Under the pieces are notes generated by a model. The model made no database searches. It saw nothing but the letters and a program-made list of their open reading frames with translations, and had not been told where the DNA came from. Positions 2,646 to 64,000 of a DNA stretch of 64,000 bases are shown here, piece by piece. The DNA comes from a virus. Lineage: Duplodnaviria > Caudoviricetes. The translations under genes and the position numbers were made by a program. Where the stretch lies: IMG/VR virus record IMGVR_UViG_3300021387_000075. One strand, written 5' to 3'. Position 1 is the first letter of the stretch; each line of letters begins with the position of its first letter.

Positions 2646-2799
2646 AAATACTCGGCACACTGATAATTTCCTGTTATCTAAAATGGTGGAAAATATATTT
2701 GCTGTATGTGTCGATAATTTTATTCCCTAAAGGAATAAAACTGGCTGGATGTTAGGCCATCCTTATCTCGTTTCAGTAGCTAACCGTCCGCTTCCCACG

Positions 2800-2887
2800 C
2801 TGCCCCTCTGGGACTCGAACCCAGATTACCCCTTCAGAGGGTATAACGGTTTTAGAGACCGGCGGTTTACCATTAGCCTAAGGGGCA
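2800..2887 (-). tRNA. amber suppressor tRNA (CUA), probably Gln-accepting, with long variable arm
   Basis: Acceptor TGCCCCT/AGGGGCA plus G73; anticodon arm CGGT-CTCTAAA-ACCG; variable hairpin TACCC..GGGTA; T-arm CTGGG-TTCGAGT-CCCAG. Confidence 0.88.
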
Positions 2888-42062: not shown

Positions 42063-42485
42063 TTATTTTAAGTGTTCAATTGCATATCCATCATCCGTTG
42101 TATAACAAATGGTATGAATCCCGTATTCTCTAATCAATGCCATACAACTCGCGCACGGACGAGCCAGCGCGGGTGCGCCATTCTTATATTCGCGCGCGAC
42201 AAATAAAATTACTTTGGAGAAATCAATATCCAAATACTTTATTTTACTAAGGACTGAAATTTCTGAATGAATTTTAGGCGGATAGTAACGAGTACTACGG
42301 TCTTCATCATATCGTAGATAATTATATTTGGCCTGACTGGTGTGCGTCTTATCGGTGTTGCATCCCTTTGCCAGAACAGTACCATGATATACAGCTACGC
42401 ATCCTAATTTTACCTTACTCGGCCCCGTATAAGTAGCCGTTTTCGCGCAGTCATTAGCCAAATCTAAGTAGTGCTGATAGTTCAT
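42063..42485 (-). CDS. zinc-dependent cytidine/adenosine deaminase-fold protein
   Basis: HSE and PCASC motifs; own consensus promoter. Confidence 0.85.
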   Translation of the reverse strand: MNYQHYLDLANDCAKTATYTGPSKVKLGCVAVYHGTVLAKGCNTDKTHTSQAKYNYLRYDEDRSTRYYPPKIHSEISVLSKIKYLDIDFSKVILFVAREYKNGAPALARPCASCMALIREYGIHTICYTTDDGYAIEHLK

Positions 42486-44178: not shown

Positions 44179-44949
44179 TCATTTATGAAACACTATATCA
44201 TTTATGTAATCTGGATGCTCGTGGAAGATTGGAATATTCTCATGTAGTTCCCATTTCATACGATAAACATTTTCATTAACCAAGGTAGGTTCTTGTTTCG
44301 CGCAAACGCCACGTTTTAGACCCAGTGGATAGTTATTCCAATTAATACCTACCTGCGTGCAAAGCATATTTTGAATATCGTTACAAGATTTATGATCGAG
44401 TTCTTTATGAGAGAAATAAGCTTGGCCCACAGACTGGATAGAATTGCGCGTGCAGTCCTGCTGACGCCATTCAAAGCAATTAAGTACTTCCTCGCGTGGT
44501 ACGATGAAAGCGCGCGAATCAAAGAGAGCAAGGCGCTCATGTTCATATGCATAATTCAGGCCATCAGAAGCATGACCTTCTTGTACCACTTTTGCTACTT
44601 CGTTATTGAAGAAGTTGGTAGCCATTGCGGCGGAAACGCTTACAATTTTTTGCAGATTCTTTCCAAACCAAGCATCGGTTTCAAAGGTATCGTCATCAGT
44701 GATAAGGATAGTGATTTCATCCGACTGCGTATAAGCAAGCTTGGCGCCCATAATATTTTCACACAGGCGCAGCATTGTATTACGCATACAGGTAAGAAAA
44801 CTTATGTCGAATGGGCGATCGAATCCTTTAGTGAAGCTATGAAAATGTACTCCATCCAGTCGAACAATGAGGGGCTCGCGCCGAGTAAGATATCTCCGTT
44901 CGATGTTTTCATAAGCTTTCATGCGGTCGCCCAGCGAGGTTTTATCCAT
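44179..44949 (-). CDS. tRNA(His) guanylyltransferase Thg1-like protein
   Basis: LGDRMKAYE, RLDGVHFHSFT, YTQSDEI, FDSR and WRQQDCTRNS motifs. Confidence 0.92.
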   Translation of the reverse strand: MDKTSLGDRMKAYENIERRYLTRREPLIVRLDGVHFHSFTKGFDRPFDISFLTCMRNTMLRLCENIMGAKLAYTQSDEITILITDDDTFETDAWFGKNLQKIVSVSAAMATNFFNNEVAKVVQEGHASDGLNYAYEHERLALFDSRAFIVPREEVLNCFEWRQQDCTRNSIQSVGQAYFSHKELDHKSCNDIQNMLCTQVGINWNNYPLGLKRGVCAKQEPTLVNENVYRMKWELHENIPIFHEHPDYINDIVFHK

Positions 44950-54239: not shown

Positions 54240-54554
54240 ACTATCACCTCGATAATTATGGGATGAATAACTCACTCAGTTTATTGTAATTTATACGCAC
54301 ATCCTACTACGAAATAAAAGAAAGAGAAAAGATGGAAGTAACCTACTCTGGTATAGTACGGGATGGCGTATACGAGAGCTCGACAAGCTCTGGCTAACAT
54401 TTATGTCGGATACGGGCGAATAGGGATGTGTGCCGAAATTCAGTGAAAGTCAAGTATTTTCGGTATTTTCAAAGTTTTTCTCCATCTTTTGTAATAATTA
54501 TACCATAAAATTTTAAAAATGTCAAATATTTGACAACTAGTAAAATTGGTAAGG

Positions 54555-54710
54555 CGTGCCCTTCGGGCACGTAAATTATAAATTAACTTCCGTTCGGGCC
54601 TTCGGCCCTCACTCCAGTTAATTTATAATTTATATATAAATTAAATTATAATAAAAAAAGTGAGTTTTTTTTTTACTACCTTATAGGGGGGGGGGGAGGT
54701 AGTAAAAAAT
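54555..54710. repeat. cluster of long inverted repeats in an AT-rich intergenic region
   Basis: GTGCCC-TTC-GGGCAC; AAATTATAAATTAACT..AGTTAATTTATAATTT; TTTTTTACTACC..GGTAGTAAAAAA around a G-run. Confidence 0.7.
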
Positions 54711-54840
54711 CGTCTCAAAAAATTTACTACAAAAAATTTCTAGTATTTTGGGGAAATTACAACAATTATTTTTTCATAAAATCAAACTCTTGATTTAAAA
54801 TGAAATTCGTGTTATAATAAAGAAAAATGGGGGTATAGTT

Positions 54841-56187
54841 ATGGGCGTACCTAGTATTACTACTGTATCAGACCTATATTCCGAAGGGAAATTGAAATTC
54901 CAGAAGGGTCTGTTTAATATAATAAACTGCGGCGTTCGTACTGGTAAAACATATTGGGCCGCGCATCATTTAGTGGATTACACCAGAGATGGCTTATACA
55001 ATAGAATTTTAATTTTGACAGACACAACCGCGCTGAAAGATTAGATTATTTAGGACTACGAAGAGTGCTGTAATGCAGATATTTTTTGGCGGCCGGGCGC
55101 AACCTGGGGTGAGGCCCCAAACCAAATAGGTATTATGTGCTACCAGAAATTCGTTTATATGCTGCTAGAAGATTCCAGCTTCTTAGACGACTTAGATGTC
55201 ATATGTTGGGACGAATGTGATGCTATATTTAACTTCGCGTCCTCAGCTTTTACGCGCGCCCGCAAGACGGACTTCGCGCGCAAGGATATGTCTAACAGTG
55301 AGGTACTGGCGCACATACAAGCAGCTTCTACCAAGCCAGAGTATATGCCACTGGTCCTGTTAGGACTATGGGAGAAGATTATTCAGCATCAGGACATTTA
55401 CTGTATTGGGCTTTCAGCTACGCCCGAGCGCGCCATTGCTTACTACAATGTGCTTACAGGCGCGAGCTACAAAGGAAAGATTGATGCGGGATACAGGTTT
55501 AAAGATGACATTTATTTCACTAATGTATTGGAGCATATAAAGACATTGGAGCCCGAGCAAGGGCACGGGTACTGGTGTTTCTCTCCATACATAGAACCCA
55601 ACAAGGGCATAGTTGCAGCTGCTGAGCGCCAAGGTTTTAAGGCGATAGAGATTCACTCTCTTAGCAATACAGACAAGCCTATGAATGCCGAGCAGCGGCG
55701 TGTCTATGATAGCATTATCCATACCCATATCATTCCACCGCCTTACGATTTCGTGGTAGTGAATAATGCGTTAAAGACAGGAATTACAATAGAGGATACG
55801 CGCTTCGATCATCTCATTGTTAATTCCTTCCGTCCCGAAGACAAGGAACAAGCAGCTCGTATGACCTTTCCCTATTAGCGGCATCAGCGTGTATGGTTGC
55901 CGCAAATCCCAGAAGAATACAGGGATACGTGGCTTACAGTACAGCAATGTAGGGAGCTTGCGGAGCAGCTTGCTGTGTCCGACCTGGATAGGGCGCATAA
56001 GAATAGCGCGAAAATACTAACGTGGAACAGCTTAAAGGACGTATTGCCGCTGGCGGGCTACACAGTGGAATGCTCGCGCAAACGCCTTAATGGCAAACAG
56101 ATGCAGTGCTATAAAATTAGCGGAGAATGGCACGACATTGATATGGTGGATCAGGAATTTGAGGAGCTTTTAGAAGCACATAAATAA
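54841..56187 (+). CDS. superfamily 2 helicase-like protein (TAG recoded, 448 aa)
   Basis: GVRTGKT Walker A, WDECD Walker B, SAT motif III; three listed ORFs in one frame joined across three TAGs. Confidence 0.85.
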
Positions 56188-56465: not shown

Positions 56466-56522
56466 ATTATACCCTAAATTTGAGAAAAAGTCAAATATGT
56501 ATACTGTATACAACGGGCCGGC
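56466..56522 (-). promoter_or_regulatory. SigA-type promoter, TACTGTATACA operator-like box and GCCGGC junction
   Basis: TTGACT (56494-56489), 17 nt, TATAAT (56471-56466); box 56502-56512; GCCGGC 56517-56522. Confidence 0.75.
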
Positions 56523-57336: not shown

Positions 57337-57552
57337 TTTCCAGCTCCTTTCTCTTTACACTATAATTATACACGAAATTTGCGCGAAAGTCAAATACTTG
57401 ATAAATGTTTTTTGGATACAATCCGCAGCTTTCCAAATTTTGCCTCGAATTTTCACGCCGACGGAAATTCAGCTTGCGGCGGGTCCTTATGTTCCAATAT
57501 GTGGGCCGAATATCGCAGCTCGCCGCAGGCCGAAAATCGGTGGAATCGATTT

Positions 57553-57654
57553 TTCCAGCTTCCAGCTCGTATAGAGTTTCCAGCTTCCAGCTGCTCCGTT
57601 GATTTCTCGGGGCAACTTCCAGCTTCCAGCTTCTTCCAGCTTCCAGCTTGCAGC
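57553..57654 (+). repeat. TTCCAGC heptamer repeat cluster
   Basis: Eight exact copies plus one TTGCAGC in about 100 bp, all on the same strand. Confidence 0.85.
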
Positions 57655-57725
57655 TTATTATACTAGGGGCCCACGTAAGTGGCCTGGCGCCTTATGGGAT
57701 AAGGCTCGGGCGCAGACTCGGTGCC

Positions 57726-57786
57726 GTAACACTTGTGTAACAGGGTCGTAACACTTCTGTAACAATTTCGTAACAAAAATTTAACA
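57726..57786 (+). repeat. six (G/T)TAACA hexamers at exact 11-bp spacing
   Basis: Starts at 57726, 57737, 57748, 57759, 57770 and 57781. Confidence 0.9.
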
Positions 57787-57797
57787 ATTGCGAGGGC

Positions 57798-57826
57798 TTG
57801 ACTTGCGCTCGGCGGTGTGATAGAAT
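57798..57826 (+). promoter_or_regulatory. SigA-type promoter with extended -10, facing into the cassette array
   Basis: TTGACT, 17 nt, TG-N-TAGAAT. Confidence 0.7.
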
Positions 57827-57894
57827 ATAATGGGGGAGAAGAGGGGTTGGACGGGCCGGCTAAAAATTGGCCGGCTAGTCGGGCCGGCCCGAGG

Positions 57895-58086
57895 TTAGCT
57901 TGCGCTAACCTCTTCGATAATAACGTTGGTAAGTTTATATACTTTAGTCATATCAAATTTACATCCGCACTTATCACAAGTACAAGTCCACCACTGTTCG
58001 CCACCGAATTGGTCGAAGCTATCGCCATAGTCATTTACCTCATAGTCTTCACACCCGCATTTTGGGCAAGTTTCACTGTACGCCAT
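57895..58086 (-). CDS. small zinc-ribbon protein
   Basis: CPKCG..CDKCG; GGAGG RBS. Confidence 0.65.
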   Translation of the reverse strand: MAYSETCPKCGCEDYEVNDYGDSFDQFGGEQWWTCTCDKCGCKFDMTKVYKLTNVIIEEVSAS

Positions 58087-58713: not shown

Positions 58714-58912
58714 AAGTTTCCTTTCTTTCTCTTCATCTTTCATATATATTATAACCTAAAATTTGTTACAAGTCAATAGTTAATTGTGTTACAATTCTGT
58801 TACAAATTCGCGGGCCGGCGGGCGAAAACTTAACACATTTGTAATAATTTTGCTATTGATTCGTAATTGCTTTTCTGCTATAATAAGAGCGTGGAAAGGA
58901 AGGTGCTAAGAG

Positions 58913-59413
58913 ATGCGTAACACTTACGAAGTTCGGGCTGAGAAGTTCATCCATCAGATTTTTAACTATATCTGGGAGTGCGAAAATGTTGATGACTATG
59001 AGTGGGCGGTAAATCACTTCAATTTCGAACACCACCGCAACGTGAAGGTGGTCCACGGCCTGACTCGGGTGGCGCTGATTACCTCTGACTATGTGGTGAA
59101 GATTGATTGCGGTCGTGCCCACGATCTGGATACGTTCGGCGGTTGTGCCAACGAGTTCGATATCTACGCACAGGCCGAAGAGGATGGCTTCGCCTACCTC
59201 TTCGCTAAGCCCACAGAGGTTGTATATAATGGCCTGACCTTCTGCGTGATGCCCCGTATCCGTGGCATTGAGCGTGAACCTAATGACGCTGATTGGTATA
59301 TGAGCGCCGAAGAGTGCGACTGGGTTTGTGAGCGGGTGTTTGATCTCCATAATGGAAATTATGGTTGGAAAGATGGCCATCCTGTACTGATCGACTATGC
59401 GGCGAATTGCTGA
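58913..59413 (+). CDS. protein kinase-like fold protein
   Basis: G.TR.A..VVKI, NE, VMPRI, DLHNGNYG catalytic loop, LIDYA; promoter TTGATT (58856)-17-TATAAT (58879). Confidence 0.8.
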   Translation: MRNTYEVRAEKFIHQIFNYIWECENVDDYEWAVNHFNFEHHRNVKVVHGLTRVALITSDYVVKIDCGRAHDLDTFGGCANEFDIYAQAEEDGFAYLFAKPTEVVYNGLTFCVMPRIRGIEREPNDADWYMSAEECDWVCERVFDLHNGNYGWKDGHPVLIDYAANC

Positions 59414-59592
59414 TGTTAGCTTCGGCTAACATTGGCCGGCGCGCCGTTGGATACTGTATACAATAGAAGCGCAAAGAAAAATCCCCACGATTGCCTGCGT
59501 GGGGTCAGTCTCCATCTCGTTTATTGTTTGCCCAACGAGAAAGGGCATTCTGGAAAGGGGCTTTAAGGTTCAACCCCTTAGAACCTCGGGCA

Positions 59593-59913
59593 TTAGCCCT
59601 TGAGGGTGTAGGCGTTGACCTTGCCCTCAATCTTCTCGACCTCATTGGCCCAGTAGTTCCGCAGACCGTAGACGATCTTGCCCTTGGCGTAACCAGTCTC
59701 GTCCGCCAGTTCCTGAGCGGTCACGGGAGCGGTAGCGGACTTCAGAGTCTCGATGACCGCATCGTGAATCTCCTCGTAGATTGCCCGATTCGCCTGCGCC
59801 TTAGTCTCACCCTTGGCCAGTTCGGCAACGATCTCGTCATAAACATTCATCAGTTCGGCGATGTTGTGGTCGTTGATGTAGGAAGCGATGGTCTGCATAG
59901 TGGATTTCTTCAT
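59593..59913 (-). CDS. hypothetical protein with C-terminal winged-helix motif
   Basis: PVTAQELADETGY.KGKIVYGL; GAAAGGA RBS. Confidence 0.7.
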   Translation of the reverse strand: MKKSTMQTIASYINDHNIAELMNVYDEIVAELAKGETKAQANRAIYEEIHDAVIETLKSATAPVTAQELADETGYAKGKIVYGLRNYWANEVEKIEGKVNAYTLKG

Positions 59914-60293
59914 TGTATAATTCCTTTCTGGTTTTTTAAGAGTTTTCCTTCTCTTCATCTTTCGTAGTTATTGTATCATAAGTTTGGAAGTTTGTCAAGA
60001 GGTTTCCGAAAATTTTCTCCCTTTTATTTTCGGTCAAGAGAATCATCGGGTCTTGCGTTTCCATGGAGATTTGTTTCCGCTCCCGTTCTCCCTCTCAACA
60101 TCCTTATTATATCAGATTTCGGGGAGTTTGTCAAGGGTTTTTTCAACTTTTTTTCAAAGTTTTTTTCGCCCTCGGGAAGCTCGCTCCCTTCACCTGACAT
60201 ATATAATTATACTCGAAATTCGGAAAAAGTCAAGCACTTTTTTTGAAGAATACTGTATACAATCGCGGGCCGGCCAAAATGGACCGAAGTCCA

Positions 60294-60918: not shown

Positions 60919-61018
60919 TCGGGGTACCTTCCTTTCCTTTCGATACTTATATTATACTCACTTTTGCGCCAATGTCAATAGGAAAATTATTACAATTCTG
61001 TTAAATGCGCCGGCGGCC

Positions 61019-61684
61019 TCACTTGGAAGCCTTGGCACGCAAGGCTTCCAAGCATTTAGTAAAAATCTCTTTTTCAATTTCTACATCTTTAAGTCCTGTA
61101 TGTGATTCAACAAAGTCATTGTTCTTACTAATATATCTCCAAAGCACTTCTGCGGTGAAGCGAGGGCGAGGGGTGGCGTGGTTTGTCATGTATCCGTTTT
61201 CCTTACAGAACGCAATATATTGTGGGTCATTACCAAATACTTTCTTAGACAGTTTCAAGCTGTCAATAACTTTCATCCCATAGGGCAAGAAATACCGCTT
61301 TCGGGATTTAGTCTGGTAACGCATAGTGGCGTTAAGGGTTTGGATATCAAATCTGGAATTGTGTGCCACCACCGCCTGAACGTTGTACTTTTCGCACAGT
61401 TCTTTTACCGTATTATACATGCCCCACGTATCCACGATTTTGTGATTACCCATCCGCATGTCTTCAATGTATTTCGGGATTTTTTCGGCATAATATGCAT
61501 CCTGCATCTGTTCGGGCATCCGAAAGAAAACATCCTCATTAATGACGCTGAAACGTGCTTTCTCCTCCCCATACTCATTGATTACCGCACCGCCGAGATC
61601 ATAGACCTGACCGTTTTTTACATCCAGTTGTCCATCTACTACGGGAGTGTTACAAGTTTCGCTATCAAATACCAAGAAGTTCAT
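61019..61684 (-). CDS. DEDDh 3'-5' exonuclease (DnaQ-like)
   Basis: VFDSET, AHNSRFD, DSL, HTGLKDV. Confidence 0.88.
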   Translation of the reverse strand: MNFLVFDSETCNTPVVDGQLDVKNGQVYDLGGAVINEYGEEKARFSVINEDVFFRMPEQMQDAYYAEKIPKYIEDMRMGNHKIVDTWGMYNTVKELCEKYNVQAVVAHNSRFDIQTLNATMRYQTKSRKRYFLPYGMKVIDSLKLSKKVFGNDPQYIAFCKENGYMTNHATPRPRFTAEVLWRYISKNNDFVESHTGLKDVEIEKEIFTKCLEALRAKASK

Positions 61685-62609: not shown

Positions 62610-63299
62610 TCACTCCTCATCGAGTTCGGCAAGGCGTGCCATTTTCTTATGCCTGCGGACGCACTCTGCGAAAATCTGCGCTTCAATTTGTACATCCTCT
62701 AACCCCGTGTGACTTTCTTCAAAGTCATTGTCGTTGGTCAGAAAGCGCCACAGAATTTCGGCAGTCTTACGCACCTGAGGGGTCTTGTGGTTGGTCATAT
62801 ATCCATTCTCTACACAGAACCGCCGATAGTTGGACTGCTTGCAAATGGTATCATTCGCCATAGTCATAGTATCCCAAATCGGGATACCATACGGGAAGAA
62901 AAATCTACGCTTGCTCTTGGTCTGATACCGAAGGGTTGAGTTTAAAACCCTCACATCAAATCTGGCATTGTGGGCAATGAAAGCCTTGATTTCATACTGT
63001 GCCACGAGTTCCCGCACAATCTTATACAGTTGCCAAGTATTGACGATCTGGCGCTTGCCCATCCGAATATCGGTTAAGTACTGGGGAATTTTATCCGCAA
63101 AGTATGCTTCACGCATAGCTTCGGGCAGTCCGAAGAATACATCTTCATTCACAAAGGACATTTCCTTATACACAAAGCCCTCATTGTCTACGATTTGAAG
63201 GCCGAAGTCATAAACCTGACCGCAAGTCGTGTCTAACTGTCCGTCTACCTTCGGGGTGTTACAAGTCTCAGTATCAAATACCATATACAGATTCTTCAT
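62610..63299 (-). CDS. DEDDh 3'-5' exonuclease (DnaQ-like), paralog of 61019-61684
   Basis: VFDTET, AHNARFD, DTM, HTGLEDV. Confidence 0.88.
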   Translation of the reverse strand: MKNLYMVFDTETCNTPKVDGQLDTTCGQVYDFGLQIVDNEGFVYKEMSFVNEDVFFGLPEAMREAYFADKIPQYLTDIRMGKRQIVNTWQLYKIVRELVAQYEIKAFIAHNARFDVRVLNSTLRYQTKSKRRFFFPYGIPIWDTMTMANDTICKQSNYRRFCVENGYMTNHKTPQVRKTAEILWRFLTNDNDFEESHTGLEDVQIEAQIFAECVRRHKKMARLAELDEE

Positions 63300-63820: not shown

Positions 63821-64000
63821 CTAACATCGCTCCTTTCGTTCTTACAGGAAGATTGTATCACACTTTGTCGGGGTTGTCAAGGGGTTCTTGAAGATTTTTT
63901 TCGATCTTCTTTCCTCTTGATCTGGATATATTATACTATAAATTTTGAAGTTTGTCAAGAATTTTTTTAAAAGAATACTGTATACAATTTTGGCGGGCCG

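Follow-up and report, generated by a model that had tools for sequence, protein, structure and literature searches.

An apparently flipped early transcription unit encoding a predicted minimal protein-kinase-like enzyme in an uncultured, TAG-recoded phage

The early region of a phage represented by a 64,000-nucleotide stretch of DNA (IMG/VR record IMGVR_UViG_3300021387_000075, Caudoviricetes; the whole stretch is called the window here) raises the question of how one gene in an array of leftward genes came to face the other way. At 58814-59440, amid leftward units, lies a complete promoter-gene-hairpin unit on the plus strand, bounded on both sides by the hexamer GCCGGC, whose open reading frame (ORF), KIN, encodes a 166-amino-acid (aa) protein-kinase-like product. 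An initial annotation of the window had described this unit as precisely inverted between its two GCCGGC sites, as a sign that the units of the region move as blocks, and as carrying a kinase that might act on host proteins. Comparison with relatives shows that the unit has been moved and flipped as a block in the course of evolution. The reading that we hold to be probable is a shuffling similar to that of the promoter-early stem-loop (PeSL) cassettes of T4-type phages (Arbiol et al. 2010, PMC2839356; Comeau et al. 2014, PMC4122927), in which an early kinase-like unit was flipped by an old rearrangement and fixed in that orientation in its clade.

The left junction of the unit is a GCCGGC (58814-58819) common to the two divergent units that meet there, and the right junction is a second GCCGGC (59435-59440) at the convergent boundary with a 106-aa gene. 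Between them, all on the plus strand, are an upstream promoter box TTAACA-N5-GTAATAATTTT (58830-58851, class A), which includes the TTAACA-N5-GTAATA box TTAACAcatttGTAATA (58830-58846); a sigma-70-type promoter TTGATT-17-TATAAT (58856-58884, matching 10 of 12 consensus positions, with TG before the -10 hexamer); a ribosome-binding site GGAAAGGAAGG (58893-58903), read from the sequence as strong and conserved in an alignment of upstream regions; KIN itself (58913-59413, with a TGA stop and no in-frame TAG); and a hairpin with a 12-bp stem and a UUCG loop (59409-59436, -16.7 kcal/mol, core GTTAGC-TTCG-GCTAAC at 59415-59430), which spans the stop codon, is not followed by a U tract and was not called by the terminator scan. 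All of the elements that the initial annotation had named (the GCCGGC pair, the box, the promoter, the kinase-like ORF and the hairpin) are present. The class A box occurs also at four leftward promoters; its 22-nt pattern has no mismatch at the kinase unit and a total of five matches in the window when up to three mismatches are allowed (1.2 expected). The near-identity noted earlier between the reverse complement of the upstream segment and a leftward counterpart is borne out, 27 of 30 positions being identical between 58830-58859 and 60975-61004 (counted by hand). Peculiar to the kinase unit are the unusual TTGATT -35 hexamer and the stretch from the -10 hexamer to the ribosome-binding site. 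The unit is, by its predicted elements, an ordinary and self-sufficient early transcription unit.

The kinase promoter lies back-to-back with the leftward promoter of an 87-aa gene (at 58856(+) and 58776(-), respectively), and this divergent promoter region (58747-58885) is a 139-bp imperfect palindrome with the left GCCGGC at its centre, containing the inverted repeats I1 (33 nt, 73%) and I2 (28 nt, 71%, no gap). The two ends of the unit form a 10-nt inverted repeat (9 of 10 positions) centred on GCCGGC, so that the unit has short, GC-rich inverted ends, GCGGGCCGGC and GCCGGCGCGC; the same hexamer stands at most junctions of the array. The description of all other cassettes as leftward is correct for protein-coding units with GCCGGC boundaries at 56.2-64 kb, but not for an ORF-less rightward promoter at 57798-57826; the helicase gene just left of the array (54841-56187) is also rightward.

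Loci encoding homologues of KIN were gathered through identical-protein look-ups (nine loci) and from viral contigs (50 loci), 52 of them scorable, and genes were called by cross-locus homology in place of length-based ORF strand calls, which were too noisy. In 26 of the 52 loci the kinase gene runs in the same direction as both neighbours (co-directional); it is antiparallel in 17 and located at a strand switch in nine. The kinase tree groups the window in a nine-member clade (the window, L001, L003/L010, L005 and L012-L015; support 100/97), all members of which have the gene antiparallel, down to ~57% protein identity. In L007, the next branch, the kinase gene faces the same way as its upstream neighbours and converges directly on the helicase gene; in most of the remaining half of the tree it is co-directional, and the antiparallel state must have changed at least three times, given the branches with good support. 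The orientation is therefore old and stable within the nine-locus clade, but it is not fixed in all relatives, as the initial annotation had allowed that it might be. Three of the nine clade loci (L013-L015) have almost no GCCGGC, with a 17-bp palindrome at their junctions instead, and thus GCCGGC is not needed to keep the arrangement.

The position of the unit varies along with its orientation. It stands between the 116-aa and 87-aa genes and the 106-aa gene in the window, at the place of the window's exonuclease paralogue exoB in L011 (61% identity), beside the helicase gene in L007, and directly upstream of a paralogue of the 106-aa gene in many loci; relative to the same families of neighbours, its orientation is reversed in other clades. 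Neither a flipped copy between the same flanks nor an empty site was found among the 52 kinase loci and nine loci with the 116-aa neighbour, and four loci with no kinase gene within 5 kb are not close relatives. Of the precise in-place inversion that had been proposed, there remains the occurrence of the other orientation in other clades, but no opposite copy between the same flanks. An opposite-strand helicase-like gene of L001, considered as a second inversion, shows no similarity to the helicase of the window at E 1e-4 and is a different ResIII gene.

The unit does behave as a block, as had been proposed. Between the window and L003 (68% protein identity) a colinear DNA match extends over 58813-59440, from GCCGGC to GCCGGC, with unrelated flanks, and several other block ends are 0-5 nt from a GCCGGC. 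In comparisons with the co-directional loci L007, L011, L018 and L028, the match begins 3-11 nt inward of the left GCCGGC. Its other end falls within the ORF in L028 and near the stop codon in the other three, because their hairpins differ. In GCCGGC-bearing lineages the kinase gene often has a GCCGGC ~88-102 nt ahead of its ATG and another ~14-31 nt past its stop codon, in either orientation, and the kinase-specific promoter accompanies the ORF in both (antiparallel in L001 and L003, co-directional in L028; also in L027, where orientation was not scored). The stretch from the -10 hexamer to the ribosome-binding site is almost identical in the window (58856-58912) and L028 (L028:5947-6000), the proteins of which are only 47% identical; this suggests a strongly constrained leader or a recently exchanged promoter module.

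Other exchanges have edges elsewhere. L012 and L013-L015 are sister loci with very similar kinases and different types of junction mark. The DNA common to L012 and L013 consists of gene bodies (73-97% identity) in different order, and the junctions are not common to them; the kinase block begins 33 nt before the ATG, inside the promoter, and ends near the end of the ORF, so that the junction mark is outside the common DNA. Within the window's clade, moreover, the kinase promoter has had its upstream half replaced by another class, with no change of orientation. Endpoints at GCCGGC, as initially proposed, thus describe the L003 block but not the exchanges between GCCGGC-type and palindrome-type loci, which have their edges in the promoter and at the ORF end, and even the L003 block does not prove GCCGGC to be the crossover point, because local alignments extend through any shared hexamer. 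Taken as sequence comparisons, these edges point to exchange within conserved promoter and junction sequences, with junction modules homogenised in each genome, and away from a crossover confined to GCCGGC.

GCCGGC is nevertheless a regular mark of the junctions. The window has 16 copies (7.5 expected), including 12 at 56.5-63.4 kb that are all intergenic. The hairpin GTTAG-N4-CTAAC occurs four times at 52-64 kb (0.035 expected), each time no more than 20 nt from a GCCGGC, and the kinase-unit hairpin alone among these four has the GCCGGC on its right side. In relatives, 109 of 160 hairpins of the GTTAG type are within 30 nt of a GCCGGC, and 330 of 338 GCCGGC copies in 25 GCCGGC-rich loci are intergenic. 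Tandem and convergent junctions both have a mean of 0.91 GCCGGC (exactly one in 16 of 22 convergent junctions), and divergent ones a mean of 0.78; being present at both convergent and divergent junctions, GCCGGC is neither promoter-only nor terminator-only.

About half of the loci have no GCCGGC or one. A palindrome TAGRTGTnTAACAYCTA, 17 bp long, is found 8-23 times per locus and almost never within genes in 16 GCCGGC-poor loci (L009, L013-L015, L021-L023, L026, L029-L031, L035, L037, L038, L041 and L059). Copies flank the kinase unit on either side; promoters have them 5-8 nt ahead of the -35 hexamer, and convergent junctions have them, too. The GCCGGC grammar and the 17-bp palindrome never co-occur, and the type of mark differs across the entire 12-kb array between sister phages. 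Three other loci (L039, L040 and L043) are rich in CCCGGG, and L030 and L044 in GCGCGC. We infer that GCCGGC is probably a protein-binding boundary or regulatory site and not a dedicated crossover site.

Host polymerase would transcribe the unit early, and the kinase-like product would phosphorylate host or phage targets. The early region of the phage family is a mosaic of promoter-gene-hairpin units that were reordered, replaced and sometimes flipped in evolution, most likely by recombination between repeated promoter or junction modules, as for PeSL cassettes; inversion may have occurred where the palindromic parts of a junction (the 16-22-bp GTTAG hairpin and GCCGGC) pair in either direction. 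Several points weigh against this account. A unit cannot be inverted by homologous recombination between direct repeats alone, and the palindromic pairing is our inference. The edges of the L003 block, exactly on GCCGGC, would also fit a mechanism acting at the palindrome, as would the presence of one GCCGGC at most junctions of any type. True breakpoints are resolved only to within a junction, the alignments running through shared hexamers, and the gene maps, built by a homology heuristic, include some spurious or missed calls. Transcript, protein and activity of the kinase unit are predicted from sequence and model, and the structural alignment scores of the model (VIA-align Z 7-8.5) are middling by the tool's own note.

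The competitor that survives best, though we consider it unlikely, is that GCCGGC and the 17-bp palindrome are the crossover or joining points of a dedicated mechanism, either a site-specific recombinase or an endonuclease whose symmetric ends are then ligated; both would allow a unit to be excised and re-inserted either way on an evolutionary time-scale. Usually one palindrome per junction, whether tandem, convergent or divergent, is not what is expected of a purely promoter- or terminator-linked element; the window-L003 block ends on GCCGGC at both sides, with several other ends within a few nucleotides; the two exclusive palindrome types suggest a lineage-specific recognising protein; and the inverted repeat formed by the unit ends would suit such a mechanism. 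Yet no resolvase, invertase, integrase or endonuclease family was detected among the ORFs scanned at 42-64 kb, the blocks exchanged between loci of different palindrome types extend from the promoter interior to the ORF end and exclude the palindrome, upstream promoter modules have been replaced in the window's clade while the orientation stayed as it was, and alignments ending at a common hexamer are expected under any model. There is a similarly small chance that the junction palindromes are recognition sites of a lineage-specific phage protein that delimits and joins early cassettes, with the kinase unit caught flipped; if that were true, the array would be a dedicated cassette-exchange or boundary system.

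Less probable still is that the gene was always on the other strand and that nothing moved, the mirrored grammar reflecting shared types of promoter and hairpin. Any opposite-strand gene with the same promoter and hairpin classes is indeed expected to look mirrored, and the orientation is stable within the clade, but in L007, the sister locus, and in most other clades the gene is co-directional and at other array positions, and the neighbours differ between close relatives (the 87-aa gene is found in the window only, and L003 has other flanks). An active invertible segment of the Hin/Gin or shufflon type, toggling the kinase gene or its neighbours, is very improbable: the short inverted GC-rich ends would suit it, and the internal promoter means that a flip would alter transcription across the junctions, but all nine clade members have the same orientation despite their protein divergence, the ORFs scanned at 42-64 kb include no invertase, the same palindrome stands at most junctions of the array and not at this unit alone, and a flip would not switch the kinase gene itself, because the promoter lies inside the unit and drives the ORF either way.

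Known systems resemble the array in different respects. PeSLs, for which mini-circles and recombination were shown by experiment (PMC2839356), also combine a stable stem-loop with a strong, sigma-70-like early promoter, in a motif that recurs chiefly in a variable region where the genes are small and of unknown function; there, too, relatives differ in genes that were inserted, replaced or reordered at the motifs. In the array, unlike PeSLs, the stem-loop is upstream of the promoter with GCCGGC or the 17-bp dyad between them; a palindrome is found at most junctions, usually once, including promoterless convergent ones; and units have also been flipped, in a TAG-recoded, uncultured phage whose shuffling is read from sequence comparison. 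Morons of lambdoid phages are independent promoter-gene-terminator units, isolated insertions in the late operons of temperate phages. The kinase unit is similar to them in having a single gene with its own promoter and a 3' hairpin, and a base composition unlike that of its neighbours; in contrast to morons, the whole early region here is built of such units with a common junction grammar. The array differs from both PeSLs and morons in the boundary palindrome, its two exclusive types and the occurrence of units in both orientations. The site-specific invertible segments Hin, Gin and Cin and the shufflons have a block in two orientations with short inverted boundary sequences, as does the kinase unit, but here no adjacent invertase was found, close relatives are not polymorphic, the boundary sequence marks most junctions, and the promoter is internal.

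KIN is predicted to be a minimal protein-kinase-like enzyme, from a phage family that is large and unannotated. Close homologues of KIN number 61, mostly ~166 aa in length, and a profile search yielded 166 cluster representatives at E<=1e-30, the majority of the 150 listed being 160-190 aa. In an alignment of 32 homologues (41-88% identity), K63, E81, D144, H146 and D161 are invariant and N149 is present in >=90%; these residues make up the combination found in protein-kinase-like folds, Lys / Glu / D-x-x-x-x-N / Asp. The AlphaFold (AF2) model (pLDDT 95, pTM 0.89) has two N-terminal helices, three strands with K63, a helix with E81, two strands and two short helices, followed by the catalytic loop and a hairpin leading to D161, and the placement of these residues fits the model (strand at 60-65, helix at 78-91, loops after a helix at 132-139). 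The protein stops five residues past D161, with no activation segment and no C-lobe helical bundle, and hence it is, as modelled, a truncated variant of the fold.

The Foldseek matches listed are all of kinase fold (Lpg2603, Rio2, APH(2''), AceK, YihE and the 171-aa OspG), with probability 0.93-1.00 over ranks 1-50, and the VIA-align scores given above were obtained with AceK, PRPK, APH, HopBF1 and Rio1; because those scores are middling, the assignment leans on fold and invariant residues together. With both of these, the initial description of the ORF as kinase-like holds. Sequence-based searches of KIN gave no match in Pfam except chlorite dismutase (E 0.075, taken as noise) and, among PHROGs, only phrog_4301 of unknown function (E 8e-4); the family profile had no match at E<=10 among sequences of the PDB, the fold being recognised through structure alone. 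Very small kinase folds with a reduced C-lobe, namely OspG of Shigella (4bvu, 4q5h), HopBF1 (6pwg), Bud32/PRPK and Rio, are structural matches to KIN, but with 11-19% identity, and the phage protein is smaller still and has a two-helix N-terminal extension. By its model, it would be a new protein-kinase-like superfamily member of very small size. Production early in infection is probable, and host or phage proteins are the most likely substrates. The DLHxGN loop resembles that of aminoglycoside- and YihE-like kinases, and therefore a small-molecule substrate is a possible alternative.

The suggestion that KIN may phosphorylate host proteins as T7 gp0.7 (T7K) does is retained as an analogy only, kinship being undetectable beyond the catalytic loop. 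Both are early genes with host-type promoters and a protein-kinase-like catalytic core, but T7 gp0.7 is 359 aa long as against 166 aa, and its shut-off domain is missing from KIN. Alignment by hhalign of the kinase family with T7 gp0.7 (E 0.075) or with 13 T7-like sequences (E 0.11) covers 17-21 columns, the aligned part being F-D-[LM]-H-x-G-N ... [IT]-D, with the metal-binding Asp 17-18 residues after the loop. PHROG 2828, which contains T7K (PMC13645617), does not match KIN at E<=0.01; PF27024 is absent from all 61 homologues in precomputed Pfam assignments, although T7 relatives carry it in the same table; and a language-model (Atlas) lead to the PF27024 cluster (score 0.93) has 162 shared features, below the guide value of 170. 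T7K has a DPV motif in place of DFG (PMC13645617), whereas the kinase family has I-D-Y-A/G at the position of D-P-V (D-Y-A in KIN). Membership in the T7 gp0.7 family was rejected on these grounds: no significant profile similarity, no match to PHROG 2828 or PF27024, and no DPV.

The array offers a clean comparative example of modular promoter-gene-hairpin shuffling outside the T4-type phages, with change of orientation included, and its junction palindromes bear on how phages keep many single-gene units insulated and exchangeable. The analysis also defines a large, unannotated family of ~166-aa stand-alone proteins of predicted kinase fold, among the smallest complete catalytic cores of the fold, which would be useful objects for structural work on the least that a kinase needs; their genes have neighbours with promoters of early type. 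The early phage kinase T7K disarms bacterial defences (PMC13645617), which makes a minimal kinase conserved across a phage family a plausible candidate for a role in counter-defence or host take-over.

The phage is uncultured, TAG-recoded and of gut or rumen type. With TAG read as sense, frames of 3121 and 1975 aa are open in the left 42 kb, and there is a tRNA with anticodon CTA (2799-2887 (-)), which together identify it as TAG-recoded, like the phages surveyed in bioRxiv 10.1101/2021.08.26.457843. At 56-64 kb, the 17 small early genes stop at TAA or TGA only, with no in-frame TAG; the ResIII helicase gene (54841-56187 (+)) has three in-frame TAG codons, and the kinase ORF of L005 apparently ends at TAG. 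The relatives are metagenomic viral contigs of up to 193 kb, and neither a nucleotide search with 7.8 kb nor a protein search with the kinase ORF found a match among GenBank phages or a cultured relative. Of the ten early ORFs scanned, most have no function assigned by Pfam or PHROGs, the 87-aa neighbour gene has no homologue in any relative and is unique to the window, and the GC content at third codon positions (GC3) of adjacent genes ranges from 0.32 to 0.76, a mosaic composition. At 53.4-64 kb there are 17 near-consensus leftward promoters in addition to the kinase promoter, and a promoter scan of 58.4-60.3 kb found 11 (2.8 expected). Rfam searches (E<=0.1, 53-64 kb) gave only two sub-threshold small RNA (sRNA) matches, both at the helicase terminator.

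To the right of the kinase unit, the convergent 106-aa gene (59593-59913 (-)) has an intrinsic terminator consisting of a hairpin and a U tract (59483-59504 (-), by terminator scan and folding). Between this terminator and the unit is an orphan ATTGTATACAGTAT box (59450-59464 (-)), with no promoter behind it, as compared with the promoters at 56494(-), 60233(-) and 63958(-); the box is degenerate in L001 and absent in L003, and may be a scar of an earlier rearrangement. The motif ATTGTATACAGTAT(T/A)C, with palindromic core TGTATACA, is a second class of upstream element located between GCCGGC and the -35 hexamer, with other copies at 56498-56513, 60250-60265 and ~63985. It was considered as a LexA-type operator and rejected, the CTGT-N8-ACAG spacing not fitting by eye. 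The 106-aa gene belongs to a family with two to five diverged copies per locus and paralogues in all loci, and has weak helix-turn-helix (HTH) matches (IclR HTH, HTH_11 and DUF6958); the family is a candidate reader of the junction or promoter boxes. Three tandem near-consensus promoters (60233, 60134 and 59998) precede the 106-aa gene at 59970-60240 (-) with no ORF between them, and another tandem pair is located at 63958 and 63880.

Several further features of the region were observed. The ORF-less rightward promoter (TTGACT-17-TAGAAT at 57798, within 57715-57915) is preceded by five or six GTAACA/TTAACA boxes with a spacing of exactly 11 bp and followed on its 3' side by three GCCGGC (57855, 57870 and 57883) and a GTTAGC hairpin; the triple GCCGGC is also found in L001, L003 and L005. 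A run of AGCTGGAAG-like repeats on the minus strand (57540-57650) lies behind a TATAAT at 57658-57663, and a similar repeat block is located directly downstream of the kinase gene in L007. At 54540-54720, where leftward and rightward transcription diverge, an AT-rich inverted repeat with ~17-nt arms surrounds two GC hairpins and is followed by T10 and G10 tracts; this arrangement is conserved in L003 and may be an origin or boundary element. The genes at 61019-61684 (-) and 62610-63299 (-) are diverged paralogues (~53% identity) of a DnaQ-like exonuclease family (phrog_20187, with weaker matches to the polymerase exonuclease subunit), each in its own promoter-hairpin unit. To the left of the early array are a dCMP/cytidine deaminase-like gene (42063-42485 (-)) and a gene for a Thg1-like tRNA-His guanylyltransferase (44179-44949 (-)).

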